Notes under the pieces: model-generated | Databases searched by the model: none | What the model saw: the letters and a program-made list of their open reading frames with translations, nothing else | What the model was told of the DNA's origin: nothing | Shown: one piece after another, positions 1,445-34,507 of the stretch | How positions within the stretch are numbered: position 1 is the stretch's first letter | How the letters are laid out: the number at the start of each line of letters is the position of its first letter | Assembly (NCBI GenBank): GCA_963748825.1 | Contig: CAVVKN010000010.1 | Location: 1-64,000 of the forward strand | DNA from: Methanotrichaceae archaeon | GTDB lineage: Archaea > Halobacteriota > Methanosarcinia > Methanotrichales > Methanotrichaceae | Length of the DNA stretch: 64,000 nucleotides | Direction of reading: 5' to 3' | Program-made: the position numbers and the translations under genes

Positions 1445-2797
1445 CTACACATTGAGCTGGTAAGCGTAGCCGGCCTTGAAGTACTTGTAATCCGAGAACG
1501 TAAGCCCGCTGCCATCTATGGCGATGTTATGATACTGATTTCCCGGCACATTGATTGTCACGGTACCGTCGGGATCTCCTGTCATTCCCTCGGTGGCCTG
1601 ATAGCTGCCGTCGACATAGACATTATACCCTCGCAGCCAGGCTGAACTGATGGTGACTGCCGCGAAATTATAGACCGGCTGGGCAGGAGGCTGGTAGGGC
1701 ACTACATCTATTACTATCACATTGCTGGGCTGGCCGTCAATATTGAAGAACAACTGATGCTGCCCCACCGCATCAGCATAGAATCCTATCTGGTTGTAGG
1801 GATAGAAGTAGTAGCTGTTCATATCCAGGCTTCCGTCCGGATATACTTCGTAGAGATAGCCATTACCTCCGGCGGACGACATGGTGACCATATTGAGCAT
1901 AGAGCCCAAAGGAACCATGGCATACTGAGTCCAGCTGGTGGCTCCAGAAATCCAGAGAGAGTTTGTGCCGGTGCTGAGAGCATAGGTCTGATACTGCGCG
2001 TAGGGCACAGCCTTTTGCGTGGAGCCGAAGTAGAGCATGGCTGGCTCCACCTCCTTCAAATCGATTTTAGTAGGTGCCGTGAGCTGACCTTCAGGAGTCC
2101 CGGAGGTAGAGCGGTAGTACTGGGAGAACTTCTGCAAAGCAACCTGGCTGGAAGTAGTCTGGCTGGAAGTCTGACTGGGCGCCTGACTGGATGCTTGGCC
2201 TAATAACTGGCCAGCGCTCTGGTCAATTGCTGGATTGGACTGTAGCTGAAAGCTATTGGCCCTAGTCATACCCTGAGTTTCAGACTGCAAACCCGCAGAC
2301 ATCGTCTGCCCACTGAGGCTGAGGGGCTTTTCACTCCAGGATGCAGATCCTGCTCCTTTCGAGCCAGTCATTTCCGATCCCGAGGATGGCGAACCCTGCA
2401 ACACAGCAGTACCTTTTACAGTGATCGTCCCTTGCATGCCTGAGTGAATGCTGCAATGATAGCCGAAGCTGCCAGGAGCATTGAATTTGAAGGCGAACTT
2501 CTTTCCCGGCATTAGCACCCCTGAATCAAATAAGCCTTGATCGCTGGTAACAGTATGCTGCACGCCATCCTGATTGTGCCACTCTACAGTTGCTCCAACG
2601 GGCACGGTCAAGGTTGAAGGCATAAACGAGTTGTCCTTGATATTTACCGTGGTTGCAGAGCCGGATGTATCGTCAACCTGATTGAGTTTCACACCACCGA
2701 AATTGTACCCAACTTGCTGTTCGAGCTTTATTTCGGATACAGCGCCTGATAAGCTGATCAGGGTTAACAGGATCAACGTTACTACATATATTTTCAT
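1445..2797 (-). CDS. Secreted protein with plastocyanin/cupredoxin domain, S/Q-rich linker and C-terminal beta-rich domains
   Basis: Signal peptide MKIYVVTLILLTLISLSGA; type-1 Cu ligand pattern QHTVT...YHCSIHSGM; low-complexity linker; C-terminal YNVYVDG (PEGA-like). Confidence 0.8.
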   Translation of the reverse strand: MKIYVVTLILLTLISLSGAVSEIKLEQQVGYNFGGVKLNQVDDTSGSATTVNIKDNSFMPSTLTVPVGATVEWHNQDGVQHTVTSDQGLFDSGVLMPGKKFAFKFNAPGSFGYHCSIHSGMQGTITVKGTAVLQGSPSSGSEMTGSKGAGSASWSEKPLSLSGQTMSAGLQSETQGMTRANSFQLQSNPAIDQSAGQLLGQASSQAPSQTSSQTTSSQVALQKFSQYYRSTSGTPEGQLTAPTKIDLKEVEPAMLYFGSTQKAVPYAQYQTYALSTGTNSLWISGATSWTQYAMVPLGSMLNMVTMSSAGGNGYLYEVYPDGSLDMNSYYFYPYNQIGFYADAVGQHQLFFNIDGQPSNVIVIDVVPYQPPAQPVYNFAAVTISSAWLRGYNVYVDGSYQATEGMTGDPDGTVTINVPGNQYHNIAIDGSGLTFSDYKYFKAGYAYQLNV

Positions 2798-2938
2798 AAA
2801 CTAAACCCCCATTTCTTCATAGATACGGACCTATAAGAATAAATATTTTTTCGAGGAAAACGGTTACAAAATAAGGGACATAAAAACAAATGAGCCGCAA
2901 CACATAGTCACGGCTCATCGTCCTTCAAAACAATGGCT

Positions 2939-4231
2939 TCACTCTTCCGGCTCATCCCGGAAGATGGTCTGCTCCCTTCCCGGCCCCACGGAAACGGCAG
3001 AAATGCAGTTATCCAGCGGCTCAATATAGAGCAGATCCTCCAGCCGCTCAACATAAGCCCGGGCATTGGCCGGCAGATCGTCATACTCTTTGATTTCAGT
3101 AATATCCTCTGTCCAGCCAGGCATGTCCTCATAAATGGGCTTGCATCTGGCCAGGTCAATTGTGCTCTCCGGGGGATAACCTATGGTCTCGCCATCGAGC
3201 GTATAGCCGACGCAGATTTTTATGGGATTTATGCCCGTCAGCACATCCAGCTTGGTTAGAGCCAGCTCCGTGTAGCCGTTCAAGTGTACGGACTTCAGGC
3301 CCAAGACGGCGTCAAACCAGCCGCAGCGTCTGGCTCTGCCCGTGGTCGTGCCGTACTCTGCACCCTTCTCTCGCATCATCACGCCCAGAGCATCTTTTAG
3401 CTCCGTGGGCATGGGACCTTCTCCGACGCGGGTGATATAGGCCTTGATCACGCCGACCACGTTGTCCACCATTACCGGGCCGACGCCCAGATTGGCGCAG
3501 GCGCTTCCCGCAGTAGTGAAGCTGGAGGTCACGAACTTCTGCGTGCCGTGGATGACATCCAGAAATGCTCCCTGAGCGCCTTCGGCCAGTACGCTCTTGT
3601 CCTCGATGAGAGCGGTGTTGATCTCACGCGAGACATCAGTCACCCTGTCTTTCAGGCGTTTTCCGATCTCAAGATACTCATCGATGTATGGCGCATACCT
3701 GACCACGGTGGGGTCGCCGCCCATGTCGGCGATGGCCTTCTCCTTGGCTGGACCGATCTCCTTGAGCTTGGCCTCCAGCAGAGCCGGGTCGGTGAGATCT
3801 CCCATCTGCACCTCCTCGCGAGCAATCTTGTCCACGTAGGCAAACCCAATGCCACGGTTGGTGGTGCCGATCTTCTCCGTCCTGGCCTTTTCACGTAGCC
3901 CATCCAGCTCGATGTGATAGGGCATGATGATGGTCGTCTTGGCGTCGATGCCAATATCGACCTTGATGCCCTCTGATTCCAGGGCCTGGATCTCGCTCCA
4001 CAGGACGCGGGGATTGAGCACCACGCCCGGGCCGATAAGCAGCCTTCTGCCGAAGATAGCGCCGCTTGGGACCAGATGCAGCTTGTACTTCTTGCCGCCT
4101 ACAACCACGGTATGGCCGGCGTTGTCGCCTCCCTGGAAGCGAACCACAACATCGTAATTTTCGGCCAGCAGATCAATAACTTTGCCTTTGCCTTCATCAC
4201 CAAACTGTGCACCGGTGAGTATAGTAAACAT
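2939..4231 (-). CDS. purA: Adenylosuccinate synthetase
   Basis: GAQFGDEGKGK, GGDNAGHT, EGAQG, GTTTGRARRCGW motifs; start placed at ATG 4231. Confidence 0.97.
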   Translation of the reverse strand: MFTILTGAQFGDEGKGKVIDLLAENYDVVVRFQGGDNAGHTVVVGGKKYKLHLVPSGAIFGRRLLIGPGVVLNPRVLWSEIQALESEGIKVDIGIDAKTTIIMPYHIELDGLREKARTEKIGTTNRGIGFAYVDKIAREEVQMGDLTDPALLEAKLKEIGPAKEKAIADMGGDPTVVRYAPYIDEYLEIGKRLKDRVTDVSREINTALIEDKSVLAEGAQGAFLDVIHGTQKFVTSSFTTAGSACANLGVGPVMVDNVVGVIKAYITRVGEGPMPTELKDALGVMMREKGAEYGTTTGRARRCGWFDAVLGLKSVHLNGYTELALTKLDVLTGINPIKICVGYTLDGETIGYPPESTIDLARCKPIYEDMPGWTEDITEIKEYDDLPANARAYVERLEDLLYIEPLDNCISAVSVGPGREQTIFRDEPEE

Positions 4232-24882: not shown

Positions 24883-25725
24883 AGTTGATATCAGCTATCC
24901 TTAAAATTTAATTTTGGTTGAGTGGACACTTTTATTAGCACACGGAATAACCGATCTGATGGTGAGAACTTGAGCACTTGTGAGCATAGTGAAATTTATT
25001 GCATAAATGCATACGAATATATTAGAAAATATAAATGTAAATCTTGTGGCGAAGTGATGATGTGCAAATGCGAAGAAGACTTTGGTCGATGCTTTTTGCC
25101 CCATCAATTGAATTCTGGCACAGACCTTGTTACAAAAGAAGAGACAAAGGTTACTTTAGGATTCCAGGAAGGTGTTTGTAACAAGTGCCGAGGCATTCCA
25201 GAAGAGGCTCATCCTAGAGCTGAAATCTACGGATGTAGCACAAAGATACGTAGATATTATTGGCGAGAGATCGAATGTGAGACTATAAGAAGGTTTGGTG
25301 AATGGGCTGAAAGGCATGGTTATTCAAAATGGCTTGATGCTCGTTTCAAACATAAGGACATTTATGAATCGATAGAGAAGAAAATCATAGAAGAAGTCAA
25401 AGAACTACACCAGCATCGCCCCAAATACACTTATAATGAAGAATCTCAAAACGATATCATTGTTAATAATAATATTGATATAATTAATATAAAAGGTGTT
25501 TATATCAAAGATAGTGGAAAAGGCGTAAAAATTCTTGATGGAACTGAACCGTCTTCAGCAGAAGATTTTGCAGCTCATTATTTCGAAGGACTGGGATTTA
25601 ATGTAGTATTTATGGAAAGCATCCCTTTGCATGCTTTATTCGGCGTTCTCATGTTCTTTCTTTTATAGGACCCACTTGATCCCAAGATAAGGATGGTAGG
25701 GTTTGGTAGTCGCGAAGCTTTCGAT

Positions 25726-27374
25726 CCTGACCTCCCCATGATTTAGGCATATTTAAACAATTTTCGTTATCTATAGCCGAAATCTATAAATAATATTATG
25801 TGCATAAATATGCACATGAAATCGTTTAATCGAATAAAAAATATAAGTGGAATTGAATACATATACAAAATCACTCCTTACTACGACAAAGAAAAGAAGA
25901 AAATTCGCCAGAAGAGCAAGTACCTCGGCAAGAATGTTAATGGAGTTCCTGTCAAGGTCCGATCTCAGGGAAAAATACCAAAGAAAGTTCTATCACATGG
26001 CGAATTCGTTCCACTGAAAAAGATAACAGAAGACCTTAAACTAGACGAAATTCTCTCTGGAGTCTTGCCCAGCAAAGAAGTCTGGCCTGTTTTAACTCTG
26101 GCTATGAATTTTGCTTTGCGTCCCCGAGCATTAACCCATATCCAAAGCTGGTATGAAGGCACAATTCTATCGGAAGACCATCCTGATCTTCCCCTATCCT
26201 CTCAGAGCCTTTCTCGAATGCTAAGCCGTATCGGTGAGAGCACCGCGAATCTGGAATTCGCTCATCGACTAATCCAAAGAATCTCAACATGCAGCACTCT
26301 GGTTTATGATATCACTTCTTTGTCCTCTTACTCTCAAAACATAGGCCTACTGGAATACGGTTATAATCGAGATGGTCTCGATCTGCCTCAGATCAACCTG
26401 TCTCTGATTGTGGACAAGGATCTAGGCATACCGGTAATGTATGATCTATATCCAGGAAGCATCTCGGATGTAACTACCCTCACGAATACAGTCAAAAAAA
26501 TAAAGGCCCTGGGTGTTCAGAATTATACTATGATCATGGATCGTGGTTTCTTCTCGACTGCCAATATCCATGAGATGGTCTCAGCGGATTTGTCGTTCAT
26601 CATCCCCCCAACAAGTACTCTCAAAAATGTCAAAGAGGCGATATCCGCCATCCATAGCAGCATCGATGATCCTGAGAATTTGGAACTCTACGAGAAAGAA
26701 CCGCTTTTTGTCATGCCTGTGGACATCGAGGTAGGCAAAAACAAGCTGAAAGGATACGCATATTACGATCAGAAGCGAGAGCAGTTGGAACGAAGTACTC
26801 TCTATAAGCGGCTATACGATTTAATGGAACGGCTCAAGGCTGTGACCTTAAAGAGCTGGATGATTCCGAGTGTGGTTTTCAGGGAAACGGCAAAAAAGGA
26901 TGCCAAGTTCATCGAATGGAAAGCAATTGACGGAAAATTTGAGGTCTCCCTCAGAAAAAATGCCGTCTCTCAGGCCATCAATAAGATGGGTAAGTTTATT
27001 CTGCTGTATCGGGGCGAGTTTTCTTGGAATGATTGTCTTTCACTTTACAGAAGCAAGGATGTCGTCGAGAAAGGATTCGATGTATTGAAGAACGACATTG
27101 AACTGATGCCAACAAACCTAAGAACCAATAACAGTTTGAGTGGCTATCTGTTCGTCGCTTTTCTTGCTCTGATCTTAAGAATGAAGCTGACCAGGCTCAT
27201 GGTCAATGCCGAGCTGAATAAACGATATTCAGTGGAAGGACTGCTCACTGAACTAGAAAAGATCAAGCTAATGATCTTGCCGGATGGCGAGAAAATCACA
27301 ACTGAGATTACCAAGAAACAGCGAGAAATCCTGGATGCACTTCATATGTGTGCCTAAACTTTGGGGAGGTCAGG
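25726..27374 (+). mobile_element. IS1634-family insertion sequence
   Basis: Terminal IRs CCTGACCTCCCCATGATTTAGGCA / TGCCTAAACTTTGGGGAGGTCAGG; 6-bp target duplication TTCGAT at 25720-25725 and 27375-27380. Confidence 0.93.
25798..27357 (+). CDS. IS1634-family DDE transposase
   Basis: YDITS, YGYNRDG..LPQINL, MDRGF, YRSKDVVEKGF motifs; intact 519-aa ORF. Confidence 0.93.
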   Translation: MCINMHMKSFNRIKNISGIEYIYKITPYYDKEKKKIRQKSKYLGKNVNGVPVKVRSQGKIPKKVLSHGEFVPLKKITEDLKLDEILSGVLPSKEVWPVLTLAMNFALRPRALTHIQSWYEGTILSEDHPDLPLSSQSLSRMLSRIGESTANLEFAHRLIQRISTCSTLVYDITSLSSYSQNIGLLEYGYNRDGLDLPQINLSLIVDKDLGIPVMYDLYPGSISDVTTLTNTVKKIKALGVQNYTMIMDRGFFSTANIHEMVSADLSFIIPPTSTLKNVKEAISAIHSSIDDPENLELYEKEPLFVMPVDIEVGKNKLKGYAYYDQKREQLERSTLYKRLYDLMERLKAVTLKSWMIPSVVFRETAKKDAKFIEWKAIDGKFEVSLRKNAVSQAINKMGKFILLYRGEFSWNDCLSLYRSKDVVEKGFDVLKNDIELMPTNLRTNNSLSGYLFVAFLALILRMKLTRLMVNAELNKRYSVEGLLTELEKIKLMILPDGEKITTEITKKQREILDALHMCA

Positions 27375-27479
27375 TTCGATATGGGTGTCACTGAAAAGCC
27401 TATAAATACCTTGCTTCCTCAGGATTTACATCACCGCTATATGCCGCAATATTTAATTTCACAGGCCCCATATGGAATA

Positions 27480-28310
27480 ATGGGTGTAACGATGCCAGCC
27501 GCCGGAACAGACACCAAATCATTGAGCAATGCCTGGAAGAAAACCAATGAACAGGAACTCTTCAATAACCTGAAAATAGACTATGGCTTCTCTCAGGCTC
27601 TTGCCAGATCACTTGTACAGCTCATGCATGAGCATATCGAGACCAGCTATGGCAATCTCCGAGGAGACTCACAGGTCGTCTATCATGCAGTCAGTGTTCA
27701 AGAGGGTCCGGGAAAGTCATTAGACCACCTTCGTCTTGTACCGGTTACACTCACGATATCCCATCCTGATGATGCAAAGGTTCTGAAAGAACAGGGTGTT
27801 CCAGGCCTGCGCAAACACAAGCTCCTCAGATTTGCGAATGAAGCATATGATCAGGGCGGTCTTCTCATCCAGGAAGATCTCGCATTGCTCCTTACAACCT
27901 GCATCCGTACCATTCAAAGAGATATGCATGAGATGCGGCAGCAGGGTATCGTGGTTCCGACTCGTGGCGAGATCCAGGATATCGGACCGACCGTCTCCCA
28001 TAAAACGAAGATCATTGAGCTTTATCTCAAAGGATACGAATACACTGAGATCGAACAGAGAACTCGTCATACCGGGGAGTCCATCAAAAGGTACATCAGT
28101 GGATTCTCAAAGGTAGTTCTTCTCTCAGATCAGGGATACTCTATCTTCCAAATCCGAGAACTAACCAATTCTTCGGAAAAAGTCATCACTGAGTATCTCT
28201 CATTGTACGAGACCTATAAAGTGATCGGCTCTGATCGACTCGCACAGATCACCTCCACCTCGATTGAAAAGCTCGATTCGAAAAAAGGGGGTCTGGGGGT
28301 AAGACAATGA
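27480..28310 (+). CDS. DUF1670-like protein (copy A)
   Basis: EAYDQGGLLIQEDLALLL...TIQRD...PTRGEIQDIGPTVSHK...HTGESIKRY; start ATG 27480 or 27492 (upstream in-frame part belongs to the IS end and VRR-NUC remnant). Confidence 0.8.
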   Translation: MGVTMPAAGTDTKSLSNAWKKTNEQELFNNLKIDYGFSQALARSLVQLMHEHIETSYGNLRGDSQVVYHAVSVQEGPGKSLDHLRLVPVTLTISHPDDAKVLKEQGVPGLRKHKLLRFANEAYDQGGLLIQEDLALLLTTCIRTIQRDMHEMRQQGIVVPTRGEIQDIGPTVSHKTKIIELYLKGYEYTEIEQRTRHTGESIKRYISGFSKVVLLSDQGYSIFQIRELTNSSEKVITEYLSLYETYKVIGSDRLAQITSTSIEKLDSKKGGLGVRQ

Positions 28311-29068
28311 CATCATCAGCTGCACCTCAAGGAAAGGGGATTCATGGTGCAATAAAGCACCTCCTGGAAGAACAATATGCATTTGTCGGCGGCGATCGTG
28401 TCCAGGACATGCTTATCGGAGATTTAATTAAGATTTTTCAGCAGTACTCGCGAGACCCATGGAATCTTGAAGTGGGACAGACACTCTGGTTCGCCGTTCA
28501 TATAGATGAAAAACCAGGTCCAGGGAAGACACTTGCCAAAATGAGAGTTGTTCCGACTATTCTCTCCTTAACACACGAGGAAGATAAGCAGATGCGAACC
28601 AATGGCTATTCCCATCAGGAAGTGAGGAGATATCGTGTGGCCAGAATGCTAAAGGAGGCATATGCTCAGAATGGAGTGCTAACACAAGCGGATGTTGCTG
28701 AATTGATTGGAGTGAGTGCCGGAACTATTGGCAAGGATATCAAAGCATATCAGACTGAGCAAGGCGTTATCTTGCCATATCGAGGAACTGTCCATGATAT
28801 CGGACCATCAATGACTCACAAGAAGGTAATTATCGCCAAGTTCCTACAGAATATTCCGACACCAGATATCGCACGTATGACACAGCATACAGAAGAAGCA
28901 TGTGATCGATATATCAAGGCATTCAAGAAAGTCAGTATGGTGCACGGGAAGATGAAGCCATTAGAGATCGCTCGAATTCTTGGGATGAGTGAGAGATTGG
29001 TAAATGAGTATATTGCACTTATCGAAGAGCAGAGAACTATTGAAGGAGAAGGTAATCATGTTAGCTGA
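28307..29068 (+). CDS. DUF1670-like protein (copy B)
   Basis: EAYAQNGVLTQADVAELI...TIGKD...PYRGTVHDIGPSMTHK...HTEEACDRY; ATGA overlap with copy A. Confidence 0.82.
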   Translation: MTSSAAPQGKGIHGAIKHLLEEQYAFVGGDRVQDMLIGDLIKIFQQYSRDPWNLEVGQTLWFAVHIDEKPGPGKTLAKMRVVPTILSLTHEEDKQMRTNGYSHQEVRRYRVARMLKEAYAQNGVLTQADVAELIGVSAGTIGKDIKAYQTEQGVILPYRGTVHDIGPSMTHKKVIIAKFLQNIPTPDIARMTQHTEEACDRYIKAFKKVSMVHGKMKPLEIARILGMSERLVNEYIALIEEQRTIEGEGNHVS

Positions 29069-29194
29069 ACAGATGTTTGGGGCAGGCGACATATGCCGTC
29101 ATTTTTGTAATCTGTATGGATACTGAAAACAATTCGTTTGGTATCTGGGAGATGAATCCCGCCGCGAAGTAACGGCGCGAGGAAGCAGGGTTGT

Positions 29195-29606
29195 GGTGAG
29201 CACGGCAGCGATCTGCAGCTTGGCATTTTAGGGCGCATAGGAGCTCTATCGACCATGCAGCATGGCTAAGTAGTAAGAATAATCCAATAATTTTCCATCA
29301 ATTAAATCAAGCTTTGCGAAAATAGAAAGTTAGGTGAGCACGGCAGCGCTCTGCAGCTTGGCCTTTTAGGGCGCATAGCAGCCCCATCGACCGTGCAGCA
29401 TGGCTAAGTGGTAATAGCAATCCAATAAATTCAAGCTTTGCTAAAATAGAAAGATTAGGTGAGCACGGCAGCGATCTGCAGCTTGGCCTTTTAGGGCGCA
29501 TAGCAGCCCCATCGACCGTGCAGCATGGCTAAGTGGTAATAGTAATCCAATAATTTCAAGCTTTGCGAAAATAGATAAATTAGGTGAGCACGGCAGCGAT
29601 CTACAG
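29195..29606 (-). repeat. Tandem array of three 125-138 bp units, each carrying a copy of the 5S rRNA 3' end
   Basis: GGTGAGCACGGCAGCG(A/C)TCT(G/A)CAG starts at 29195, 29333, 29458 and 29583 (the last is the real 5S end); intervening ~100 bp also conserved. Confidence 0.93.
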
Positions 29607-29712
29607 TTCCCGAGAGCTCGCGCATCTGAGTACAGTGCAGAACGTGGACAGGCTTATCTTCTGAGTTCGGAATGGGTTCAGGAGTTTCCCTGTCGCTCTG
29701 GCCGCCATGCTC
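29583..29712 (-). rRNA. rrf: 5S ribosomal RNA
   Basis: Minus strand GAGCATGGCGGCC...CCCATTCCGAAC...GATCGCTGCCGTGCTC with terminal helix pairing. Confidence 0.95.
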
Positions 29713-29821
29713 GATTCCAAGTACCGGAATCGAACCGGTTTAGTGCCTCCCCGGGCCGTAACCCGGGGTCTTGGGTTAAGTGCCTTAAGCTTTGCGACCA
29801 GATTTCGCCCGAGTTTAGTGG

Positions 29822-32715
<2,894 letters not shown>

Positions 32716-32842
32716 GCTTATGCCCCACTAAACTCAGTGAGCGTCTGGTCGCAAAGCTTGTGCACGGCATCATCGGACCGCTCCGTCAAGAACGGACCTT
32801 CGCCCTTCCACATCGAGTCTGCCTCAATGTGTGCATTGTAAT

Positions 32843-32915
32843 TGGACTTGCTGGGATTCGGACCCAGGGCCTCCGCCTTGCAAAGGCGGCGCTCTACCAG
32901 CTGAGCTACAAGCCC
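32843..32915 (-). tRNA. tRNA-Ala(TGC)
   Basis: GGGCTTGTAGCTCAGCTGGTAGAGCGCCGCCTTTGCAAGGCGG...CAAGTCCA cloverleaf in the 16S-23S spacer; CCA not encoded. Confidence 0.95.
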
Positions 32916-33036
32916 GGGTACTAGCCCCAGCTAATAATCAGAATAGCTGGCTAATTGGTTCTCTTTTTGGTCTCGGTCGACATTTTCAGCTTCCAACTGG
33001 TTACGGGTGGGTATGCTTGTGCATACCCATAACGTT

Positions 33037-34507
<1,471 letters not shown>

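Follow-up and report, generated by a model that had tools for sequence, protein, structure and literature searches.

The window analysed here is a 64,000-nucleotide stretch from a Methanotrichaceae archaeon (GenBank assembly GCA_963748825.1, contig CAVVKN010000010.1, positions 1 to 64,000). Between the ribosomal RNA (rRNA) operon and the remnant of a nuclease gene lie two overlapping genes of the Pfam family DUF1670 (PF07900) which, together with short non-coding ends, form a compact unit, the DUF1670 element, that an earlier note on this DNA had read as an unclassified mobile element. The features of the element are as follows.

27426..29104, forward strand: DUF1670 element, a copy of subfamily 1, 1679 bp, apparently intact (limits from similarity to copies elsewhere)
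27426..27447, forward strand: left end, with the 9-nt tip TTACATCAC followed by the inverted-repeat core CGC.ATATG.CGC
27448..27461, forward strand: AT-rich box AATATTTAATTT, just inside the left repeat and about 35 nt upstream of gene A
27492..28310, forward strand: gene A, A-type DUF1670 protein of 272 amino acids (PF07900, E 2.8e-75)
28307..29068, forward strand: gene B, B-type DUF1670 protein of 253 amino acids (PF07900, E 3.2e-82)
29085..29104, forward strand: right end, with the inverted-repeat core GGCGACATATGCCG followed by the 6-nt tip TCATTT

Genes A and B encode full-length members of DUF1670, with 252.9 and 275.6 bits, respectively, against a cut-off of 25 and coverage of positions 1/2–220 of 220. 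They are 27–28% identical and overlap by ATGA (28307–28310), the start of B lying over the stop of A, in agreement with the initial description of two paralogous, overlapping genes. The open reading frame (ORF) of gene A opens at 27348, and comparison with other copies places the true start at the ATG at 27492. The two genes occupy 1577 of the 1679 bp, and antisense and alternative-frame ORFs, considered as candidates for further genes, were taken as chance occurrences because their positions differ in other subfamilies. Gene A is classed as A-type by profile. Of 79 loci, drawn from numerous phyla of archaea and bacteria, 65 have an A-type gene immediately followed by a B-type gene, the remaining 14 being either cut by the start of the available sequence (8) or broken copies (6). 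Long chains also occur among the best 150 family representatives, comprising 18 two-module proteins (502–572 amino acids), three of which are clear A–B fusions by profile, and 4 four-module proteins (930–952 amino acids). Pfam finds solely DUF1670 and helix-turn-helix families in 14 of these long forms, plus one DnaG-type zinc ribbon. The conserved gene order and the existence of such chains support the suggestion that the two paralogues form one unit.

The family is large: a profile search gave 2222 clusters at E ≤ 1e-3, of which 413 reach E ≤ 1e-30. Its hosts include several methanogen orders, Thermoplasmatota, Actinomycetota, Chloroflexota and others. Relatives are named in databases as DUF1670 domain proteins or as XRE, DtxR or Lrp regulators; no function and no link to mobile DNA is conveyed by these names or by that of the family, and here the proteins are the cargo of a mobile element. 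A tblastn search of B against plasmid and phage collections gave no match. The literature searched contained no mention of 'DUF1670' or 'PF07900' (ISfinder lay outside this comparison), and among the best matches listed for insertion sequences and Methanothrix the portions of text available held nothing relevant. One Neomarinimicrobiota record (L118:1396–4746) carries two complete A–B pairs arranged tail to tail, about 165 bp apart.

Comparison with copies in other genomes and in metagenomes defined the element limits, with similarity starting at 27424–27426 and stopping at 29104–29106 between unrelated flanks. For the copies in G001:C65 (85%), G005 and G023 the limits are 27420–27426 and 29104–29108, again with unrelated flanks; the G005 and G023 copies represent one shared locus, and the G005 copy is decayed with an internal deletion. 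A copy in another assembly with different flanks (L043), which is without most of gene A, is 100% identical over 28292–29104 and 99.3% identical over 27421–27561. At least 0.84 of the sampled words of 27300–29250, a stretch of which the element makes up 0.86, were found in 14 DNA runs from 7 studies, and contigs from one wastewater and one sludge run follow the window from 27424/5 to 29104/6 with at most 2 differences before continuing into other flanks.

The layout of the left end is kept in place in 7 subfamily-1 left ends, with subfamilies 2 and 3 alike in plan, and the left arm named in the earlier note (27426–27447) is exactly this conserved end. The right-end sequence is kept in 12 distinct subfamily-1 right junctions, and metagenome contigs part from the window at 29104–29106, so the right arm, previously drawn to 29110, ends at 29104; 29105–29110 ('TTACA') is flank and differs in every other copy. 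Taken by itself, the window copy does not distinguish the proposed inverted repeat from chance, an inverted-repeat listing giving 48 inverted pairs of similar quality within its 1.7 kb, and the repeat is real because it is conserved in place across copies and subfamilies. AT boxes comparable to that at 27448..27461 occupy the corresponding place in subfamilies 2 and 3, and judging from its composition and position the box may be an archaeal TATA box. Just outside the left end, AGGAT (27421–27425) is common only to the window copy and the 100%-identical L043 copy (AGGATT, L043:2847–2852), and half-conserved bases also flank two G017 copies and four Actinomycetota copies; these bases could be a target preference or flank bases carried over.

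Three archaeal subfamilies and one bacterial subfamily share a plan with a subterminal inverted repeat whose core contains ATG, and element length across the family is 1.68–1.72 kb. The archaeal subfamilies have the core CA[AT]ATG and unequal tips, TTAC... on the left and ...ATT on the right. Subfamily 1 combines the left tip TTACATCAC and the core CG.CATATG.CG with an equal core on the right followed by TCATTT. Subfamily 2 (1724 bp) starts with TTACTAT[CT]CGTC and then CAAATGTCCCCTACAT, ends with ATGTAGAGG.CATTTG and then CCACTATT, and occurs next to 8 different flanks on the left and with 18 distinct junctions on the right. Subfamily 3, from Methanoperedens and ANME-2 records, has a perfect 13-bp inverted repeat, GGACAAATGACCT, separated from the left and right ends by 9 and 6 nt, respectively. 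The bacterial subfamily is represented by one Actinomycetota genome with four copies that are 99.7% alike and carry a 16–19-bp inverted repeat 10–11 nt from each end. Flanks of these four copies (L111, L112, L114 and L115; about 2055–3792) resemble each other (left ~CTGGCGT, right ~TGCGCG.GTTC.G), which suggests a sequence-specific target in this subfamily. The window copy at 27426–29104 has the A–B gene order, the TTAC and ATT(T) tips, the subterminal repeats and the varied flanks of the family.

The DUF1670 element is almost certainly mobile and moves as one discrete unit, because the same ends occur between unrelated flanks, near-identical copies are multiple and two empty sites exist. A scan of species genomes confirmed the element at 236 places, and the distinct junctions collected number 25 on the left and 43 on the right. 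DUF1670 genes show a patchy distribution, being present in 7 of 24 congeners among 40 relatives compared; G001 encodes three pairs, G017 two pairs and a fragment, with two copies 99% alike at separate places, and several genomes retain fragments with stop codons only. A total of 108 of 120 listed B relatives are known only from contigs of ≤5 kb, mostly 1–2.5 kb, as repeats break assemblies, and all four G050 contigs examined, like both of those from G063, break off within the right end, each beside its own flank. Conserved ends, near-identical and decayed copies and two empty sites are all in line with the original reading of a mobile element; the copies collected from elsewhere, with flanks aligned, have fixed ends and are not single-copy at one syntenic locus. 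Solo end fragments of 140–480 bp are numerous across the genus, and one 214-bp left-end fragment (L079:1849–2061) lies directly before a full subfamily-2 copy.

The two empty sites correspond to the subfamily-2 copies L067 and L081. At 6 places, spread over 5 other genomes, the two flanks of L067 adjoin each other directly and overlap by 6 nt; the empty site, inspected at two of these six places (L128 and L129), reads ...AAATATCTATTTTGG..., while the occupied site reads ...ctat, the element from TTAC to CTATT, and then tcgc.... For L081, the gap between the flanks measures 3–10 nt, or the flanks share a 6-nt overlap, in G059, G074, G010, G060 (two places) and G057, and in G001 the gap is 12 nt; six of these empty sites, when aligned, revealed no duplication and an ambiguity of ≤3 nt (TTT). 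Insertion occurs without a fixed target duplication. The 3–6 nt of T-rich ambiguity at both empty sites is explained by the element's own tips, and copies with both flanks in the subfamily comparisons contain no repeat of flank sequence, while IS1634 copies in the same analysis have clean 6-bp duplications. Of the 25 left junctions, 20 have T at position -1 and 23 have A or T at position -2; of the 43 right junctions, 26 have T at position +1. Insertions are into short T-runs, and on its left side the target tends to look like the right tip of the element (CTATT or CATTT).

The left-terminal TTAC belongs to the element, because its AC is missing from the empty L067 site; an IS608-like reading in which TTAC is the target was rejected, as the empty site in L128 and L129 is without TTAC. 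Hairpin targets were also rejected. Single-strand folding of the ends of the window copy and L067 is no better than that of shuffled sequence (z 1.57, 0.27, -0.40 and 0.20), and the folding of 21 computationally rejoined targets does not exceed that of the DNA beside them (mean z +0.26). The L067 target (990–2059 and 3784–3971) is itself a repeat of about 1.26 kb, present with 89–95% identity at at least 6 places in 5 congeners and possibly another mobile element. In a single AT-rich intergenic region, the subfamily-1 copy of G001:C65 (L135, 108290–108520) and the subfamily-2 copy of G063:C59 (L081) are inserted about 60 bp apart in two different genomes.

The surroundings of the window copy include a disrupted gene and an insertion sequence on the left, and repeats and the rRNA operon on the right.

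24922..25725, forward strand: left flank part 1, N-terminal part of a VRR-NUC gene, pseudogene (alignment with P0270 and P0271, 57–63% identity)
25726..27374, forward strand: IS1634-family insertion sequence, 1649 bp, within the VRR-NUC pseudogene (NCBIfam transpos_IS1634, E 2.8e-91)
27381..27425, forward strand: left flank part 2, last 15 codons of the VRR-NUC remnant (the frame resumes once the insertion sequence and one copy of its duplication are removed)
29195..29582, reverse strand: three tandem units of about 125 nt after the 5S gene, outside the element
29588..34507, reverse strand: rRNA operon, with 5S at 29588–29709, 23S at 29820–32722 and 16S at 33037–34507

The full-length relatives of the VRR-NUC gene, P0270 and P0271 (435 and 442 amino acids), carry PF08774, and residues 19–271 of P0270 match 24967–25725 with 63% identity. 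The remnant is disrupted in three ways: by a TAG (25666–25668) that closes the ORF 24922–25668 where relatives have Q, by the IS1634 insertion, and by truncation at the DUF1670 element. IS1634 has the terminal repeats CCTGACCTCCCC and a 6-bp target duplication, TTCGAT (25720–25725 and 27375–27380); three copies at 99.9% identity are present in the genome (C10, C3 and C6), each with its own 6-bp duplication, and a partial copy lies on C4. Beyond it, 27381–27425 gives a weak but collinear match to residues 272–287 of P0270 (E 0.36), and the break of the frame at LLPQD, as first noted from the translation, falls exactly at 27425/27426, the left end of the element. The C-terminal ~150 residues, including the nuclease domain, were found nowhere in the window genome. 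The gene has no relative in 58 congeners, hence no empty site was found for the window copy and the search for an empty VRR-NUC allele came to nothing. With a low guanine-plus-cytosine content (36%) and no relative in those congeners, VRR-NUC is probably a remnant of acquired DNA.

On the other side, the ~125-nt unit occurs once at each of the other three rRNA operons of the genome, where the element is absent, and behind 5S genes across the genus; G068:C6 has an array of at least 3 units with no element nearby. These element-free units contradict the suggestion that the element generates the 5S-end array. A second case of a DUF1670 pair near a 5S end is known from G017:C6, where a subfamily-2 copy is found behind a 5S gene and the ~125-nt unit in the same position and orientation as in the window. 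Most insertions, however, lie away from the 5S region. The two independent insertions behind 5S genes, within a very small target, could reflect a liking for AT-rich, T-run-bearing, harmless DNA or survival there. The unit matches neither a tRNA nor an Rfam family and may be a processing or termination element. An array located by Tandem Repeats Finder (29299–29606) reaches into the last ~19 nt of the 5S gene, so that the 3' end of 5S seems to recur from one unit to the next.

The model of protein B (predicted local distance difference test, pLDDT, 91.3; predicted template modelling score, pTM, 0.80) comprises a small N-terminal domain of two helices, a beta hairpin with a long loop and one further helix, followed by a winged helix (~102–165) and a bundle of two helix-turn-helix units (166–250). 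Foldseek with the whole model returned nothing at E ≤ 1e-3, and with the N-terminal domain returned IHF/HU rows only, none significant (E 0.8–2.6). The VIA fold search matched B to TrpR-like domains, the DnaA box-binding domain, the CAP domain of topoisomerase VI-A and Mu Mor/C, and further to LuxR and sigma-4 types and a resolvase helix-turn-helix. The CAP domain match covers residues 100–165 (Z 5.8), a region without any invariant tyrosine. Protein Atlas look-alikes of B, with PF07900 excluded, are small helix-turn-helix clusters scoring ≤0.81, which is chance level. A prediction of the A+B complex scored 0.08, with a mark of 0.32, and was used neither for nor against any interpretation.

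Conservation was assessed in 111 diverse family members, 22–69% identical to B, together with B itself. H171 (B numbering) is invariant, and R113, Q121, D129, P157, R159, G160, D164, G166, K172, H194, Y202 and Y235 are conserved in ≥90%. A-types and B-types alike keep these residues, the polar ones being retained despite 27% identity between A and B, and the shared motif R-G..D-I-G-P..H-K ... H-x7-(R)Y recognised at the outset is conserved. The H-x7-Y box forms the recognition helix of the second helix-turn-helix in the B model.

Among known enzyme types, Pfam detected no DDE, HUH, Phage_integrase (PF00589) or Resolvase (PF00239) family in A or B at E ≤ 0.01, consistent with the reported lack of DDE and HUH motifs. 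Profiles from Pfam, NCBIfam, PHROGs, PADLOC and the PDB assigned B to no nuclease or recombinase family, with short helix-turn-helix touches only, and the PDB yielded no tyrosine-recombinase match by sequence or profile. No transposase model of NCBIfam matches; that of IS630 reaches only a single helix-turn-helix of B (E 0.011; 15 bits against a cut-off of 100). Neither Pfam nor NCBIfam indicated a DDE family, and no DDE fold was among the listed fold matches of whole B or its N-terminal domain. The 50 rows shown by Foldseek or VIA-align likewise included no recombinase, though a family beyond those rows may match, and the only trace of a serine recombinase was a fold row for Tn3 resolvase confined to its C-terminal helix-turn-helix (Z 5.3 over 45 residues).

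The element resembles several known systems in part. DDE insertion sequences make a fixed-length target duplication, and the DUF1670 element does not. It is reminiscent of IS630/Tc1-mariner in its tandem helix-turn-helix units with a conserved linker and its repeats near each end, and the Tc3 structure 1u78 is a weak Foldseek row for B (E 0.41); unlike that group it has no recognised DDE domain after the DNA-binding part, no TA target, no duplication, and two paralogous proteins. Transposons of the Tn554, Tn916, Tn4451 and IS607 types also lack a target duplication, have unequal ends and use sites resembling the element end or joint, and Tn554 needs two related recombinases. The DUF1670 element shares the missing duplication, unequal ends and end-like insertion sites with such tyrosine- and serine-recombinase transposons, but differs in having no recombinase domain recognised by sequence or among the fold matches listed, a length of 1.7 kb and clear subterminal inverted repeats. 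IS200/IS605 elements, for example IS608, also have no duplication and unequal ends, features that the DUF1670 element shares along with TTAC at the left junction; here, however, TTAC is element-borne, the ends are without single-strand hairpins, and there is no HUH/Y1 family match. Finally, the small size, two consecutive overlapping genes and likely need for both recall IS21; both DUF1670 genes, however, are paralogues made of DNA-binding modules, whereas IS21 is described as encoding a DDE transposase in one gene and an AAA+ ATPase in the other (PMC11208146).

We propose that the DUF1670 element probably represents an undescribed insertion-sequence-like family whose sole genes are A-type and B-type DUF1670, with the window copy apparently intact. 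A and B are likely to be its transposition proteins, as they are its only, always-paired cargo across domains of life. In this scheme A and B would act jointly, with two or four modules per complex, and the three helix-turn-helix units of each module would bind the subterminal inverted repeats on both sides of the element. Its termini would then be brought together and cut at the unequal tips, and the element would be joined to the target by conservative break-and-rejoin with no repair synthesis, possibly via a joined-ends intermediate. Binding at the left repeat would probably also silence the element's promoter, since this repeat adjoins the AT-rich box before gene A. The most speculative step is that A and B themselves cut, for which the candidate active site would be the nearly invariant block P-x-R-G-x3-D-x-G-x4-H-K between the first and second helix-turn-helix, plus H194 and R201/Y202.

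That A and B are themselves the enzyme, and so a transposase or recombinase of a new class that consists of DNA-binding modules alone, is a tentative proposal to which we give somewhat less than an even chance. Such an enzyme could have an IHF/HU-like N-terminal bending domain and an active site composed of the R159, D164, H171 and K172 linker and the H194...R201-Y202 helix, perhaps shared between A and B subunits. Cleavage would fall at the unequal tips, and joining to T-runs would involve no repair synthesis. A nucleophilic tyrosine beside an arginine on a winged-helix or helix-turn-helix scaffold is known from type II topoisomerases and Spo11.

Several observations weigh against the proposal of a mobile family moved by its own proteins. 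With respect to mobility, the element is single-copy in the window genome, both flanks could be matched to empty sites at only two insertion sites, and contigs of 4 runs contained neither a joined-ends (circle) contig nor an excision joint, though contigs drop rare forms. Only the left junction of the window copy resembles a simple insertion, as the right flank (29105–29194) does not continue VRR-NUC; this one-sided junction may have arisen through a later deletion or through recombination between two copies. RNA-library contigs span parts of A and B, and DNA carry-over is possible there. With respect to catalysis, no catalytic fold or family was recognised in A or B, and the VIA matches to whole B are DNA-binding domains only, with a best Z of 6.6. 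The N-terminal domain modelled alone reaches moderate confidence (pLDDT 74.3, pTM 0.43) and has no fold match at Z ≥ 5, at which threshold it was also rejected as a known catalytic fold. The conserved H..RY and S..Y residues sit in recognition helices and could serve DNA binding alone.

These features of the proteins would fit an element that is mobile but dependent, in which A and B only bind and bend DNA (for end recognition, synapsis or repression) and a host enzyme common to archaea and bacteria cuts and joins, candidates being a Xer-type recombinase, a topoisomerase or a repair nuclease. Every recognisable part of B is a DNA-binding module, the N-terminal domain has the helix-helix-hairpin-helix order of IHF/HU-type proteins, if only with the weak and non-significant matches given above, and the profile collections searched place B in no nuclease or recombinase family. 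We nonetheless consider a host enzyme unlikely: the hosts are so different that the helper would need to be universal, and insertions occur at many different sites, not at a single chromosomal site of the dif kind. Furthermore, P157, R159, G160, D164, G166, H171 and K172 are nearly invariant outside the recognition helices, which exceeds the conservation that simple linkers usually show.

A further alternative, that A and B are divergent tyrosine recombinases with H-x7-Y as the C-terminal catalytic box and the pair working like the two of Tn554, appears very improbable. It draws on the conserved H194 and Y202 with R201, on R159, H171 and K172 upstream, and on the absence of a target duplication together with target sites resembling the element end, a combination typical of tyrosine and serine transposons. 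Against this, the box lies in a plain helix-turn-helix recognition helix of a confidently predicted model (pLDDT 91), R159 and Y202 span 44 residues, far below the length of a catalytic domain, and neither Phage_integrase at E ≤ 0.01 nor the rows shown by either fold search point to a recombinase, so the likeness to tyrosine recombinases raised in the earlier note is not sustained. An immobile locus, that is an ordinary conserved two-gene regulator operon repeated in appearance only, might be read from the single copy in the window genome and from the database names of the proteins as transcriptional regulators, but is barely credible given ends identical to the base between unrelated flanks, multiple 99–100% identical copies per genome, empty sites, contigs that break at the ends and presence in only 7 of 24 congeners.

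Recognising DUF1670 elements as a repeat family has practical consequences, as their genes are now annotated as regulators or DUF1670 and the elements break metagenome contigs, including beside rRNA operons; treating them as such would improve annotation and binning. The small size and duplication-free, orientation-specific insertion of the element also give it a potential as a tool that is worth testing. To our knowledge, the well-studied prokaryotic transposable elements all use DDE, DEDD, HUH, serine or tyrosine recombinases, or Cas1. The DUF1670 element is widespread, with clean ends, recent activity and empty sites, and its two proteins match no established enzyme type. If A and B are the enzyme, they would represent a new way of cutting and joining DNA; if a host enzyme is used, a small element would be hijacking a universal enzyme via two DNA-binding proteins, which would also be new.

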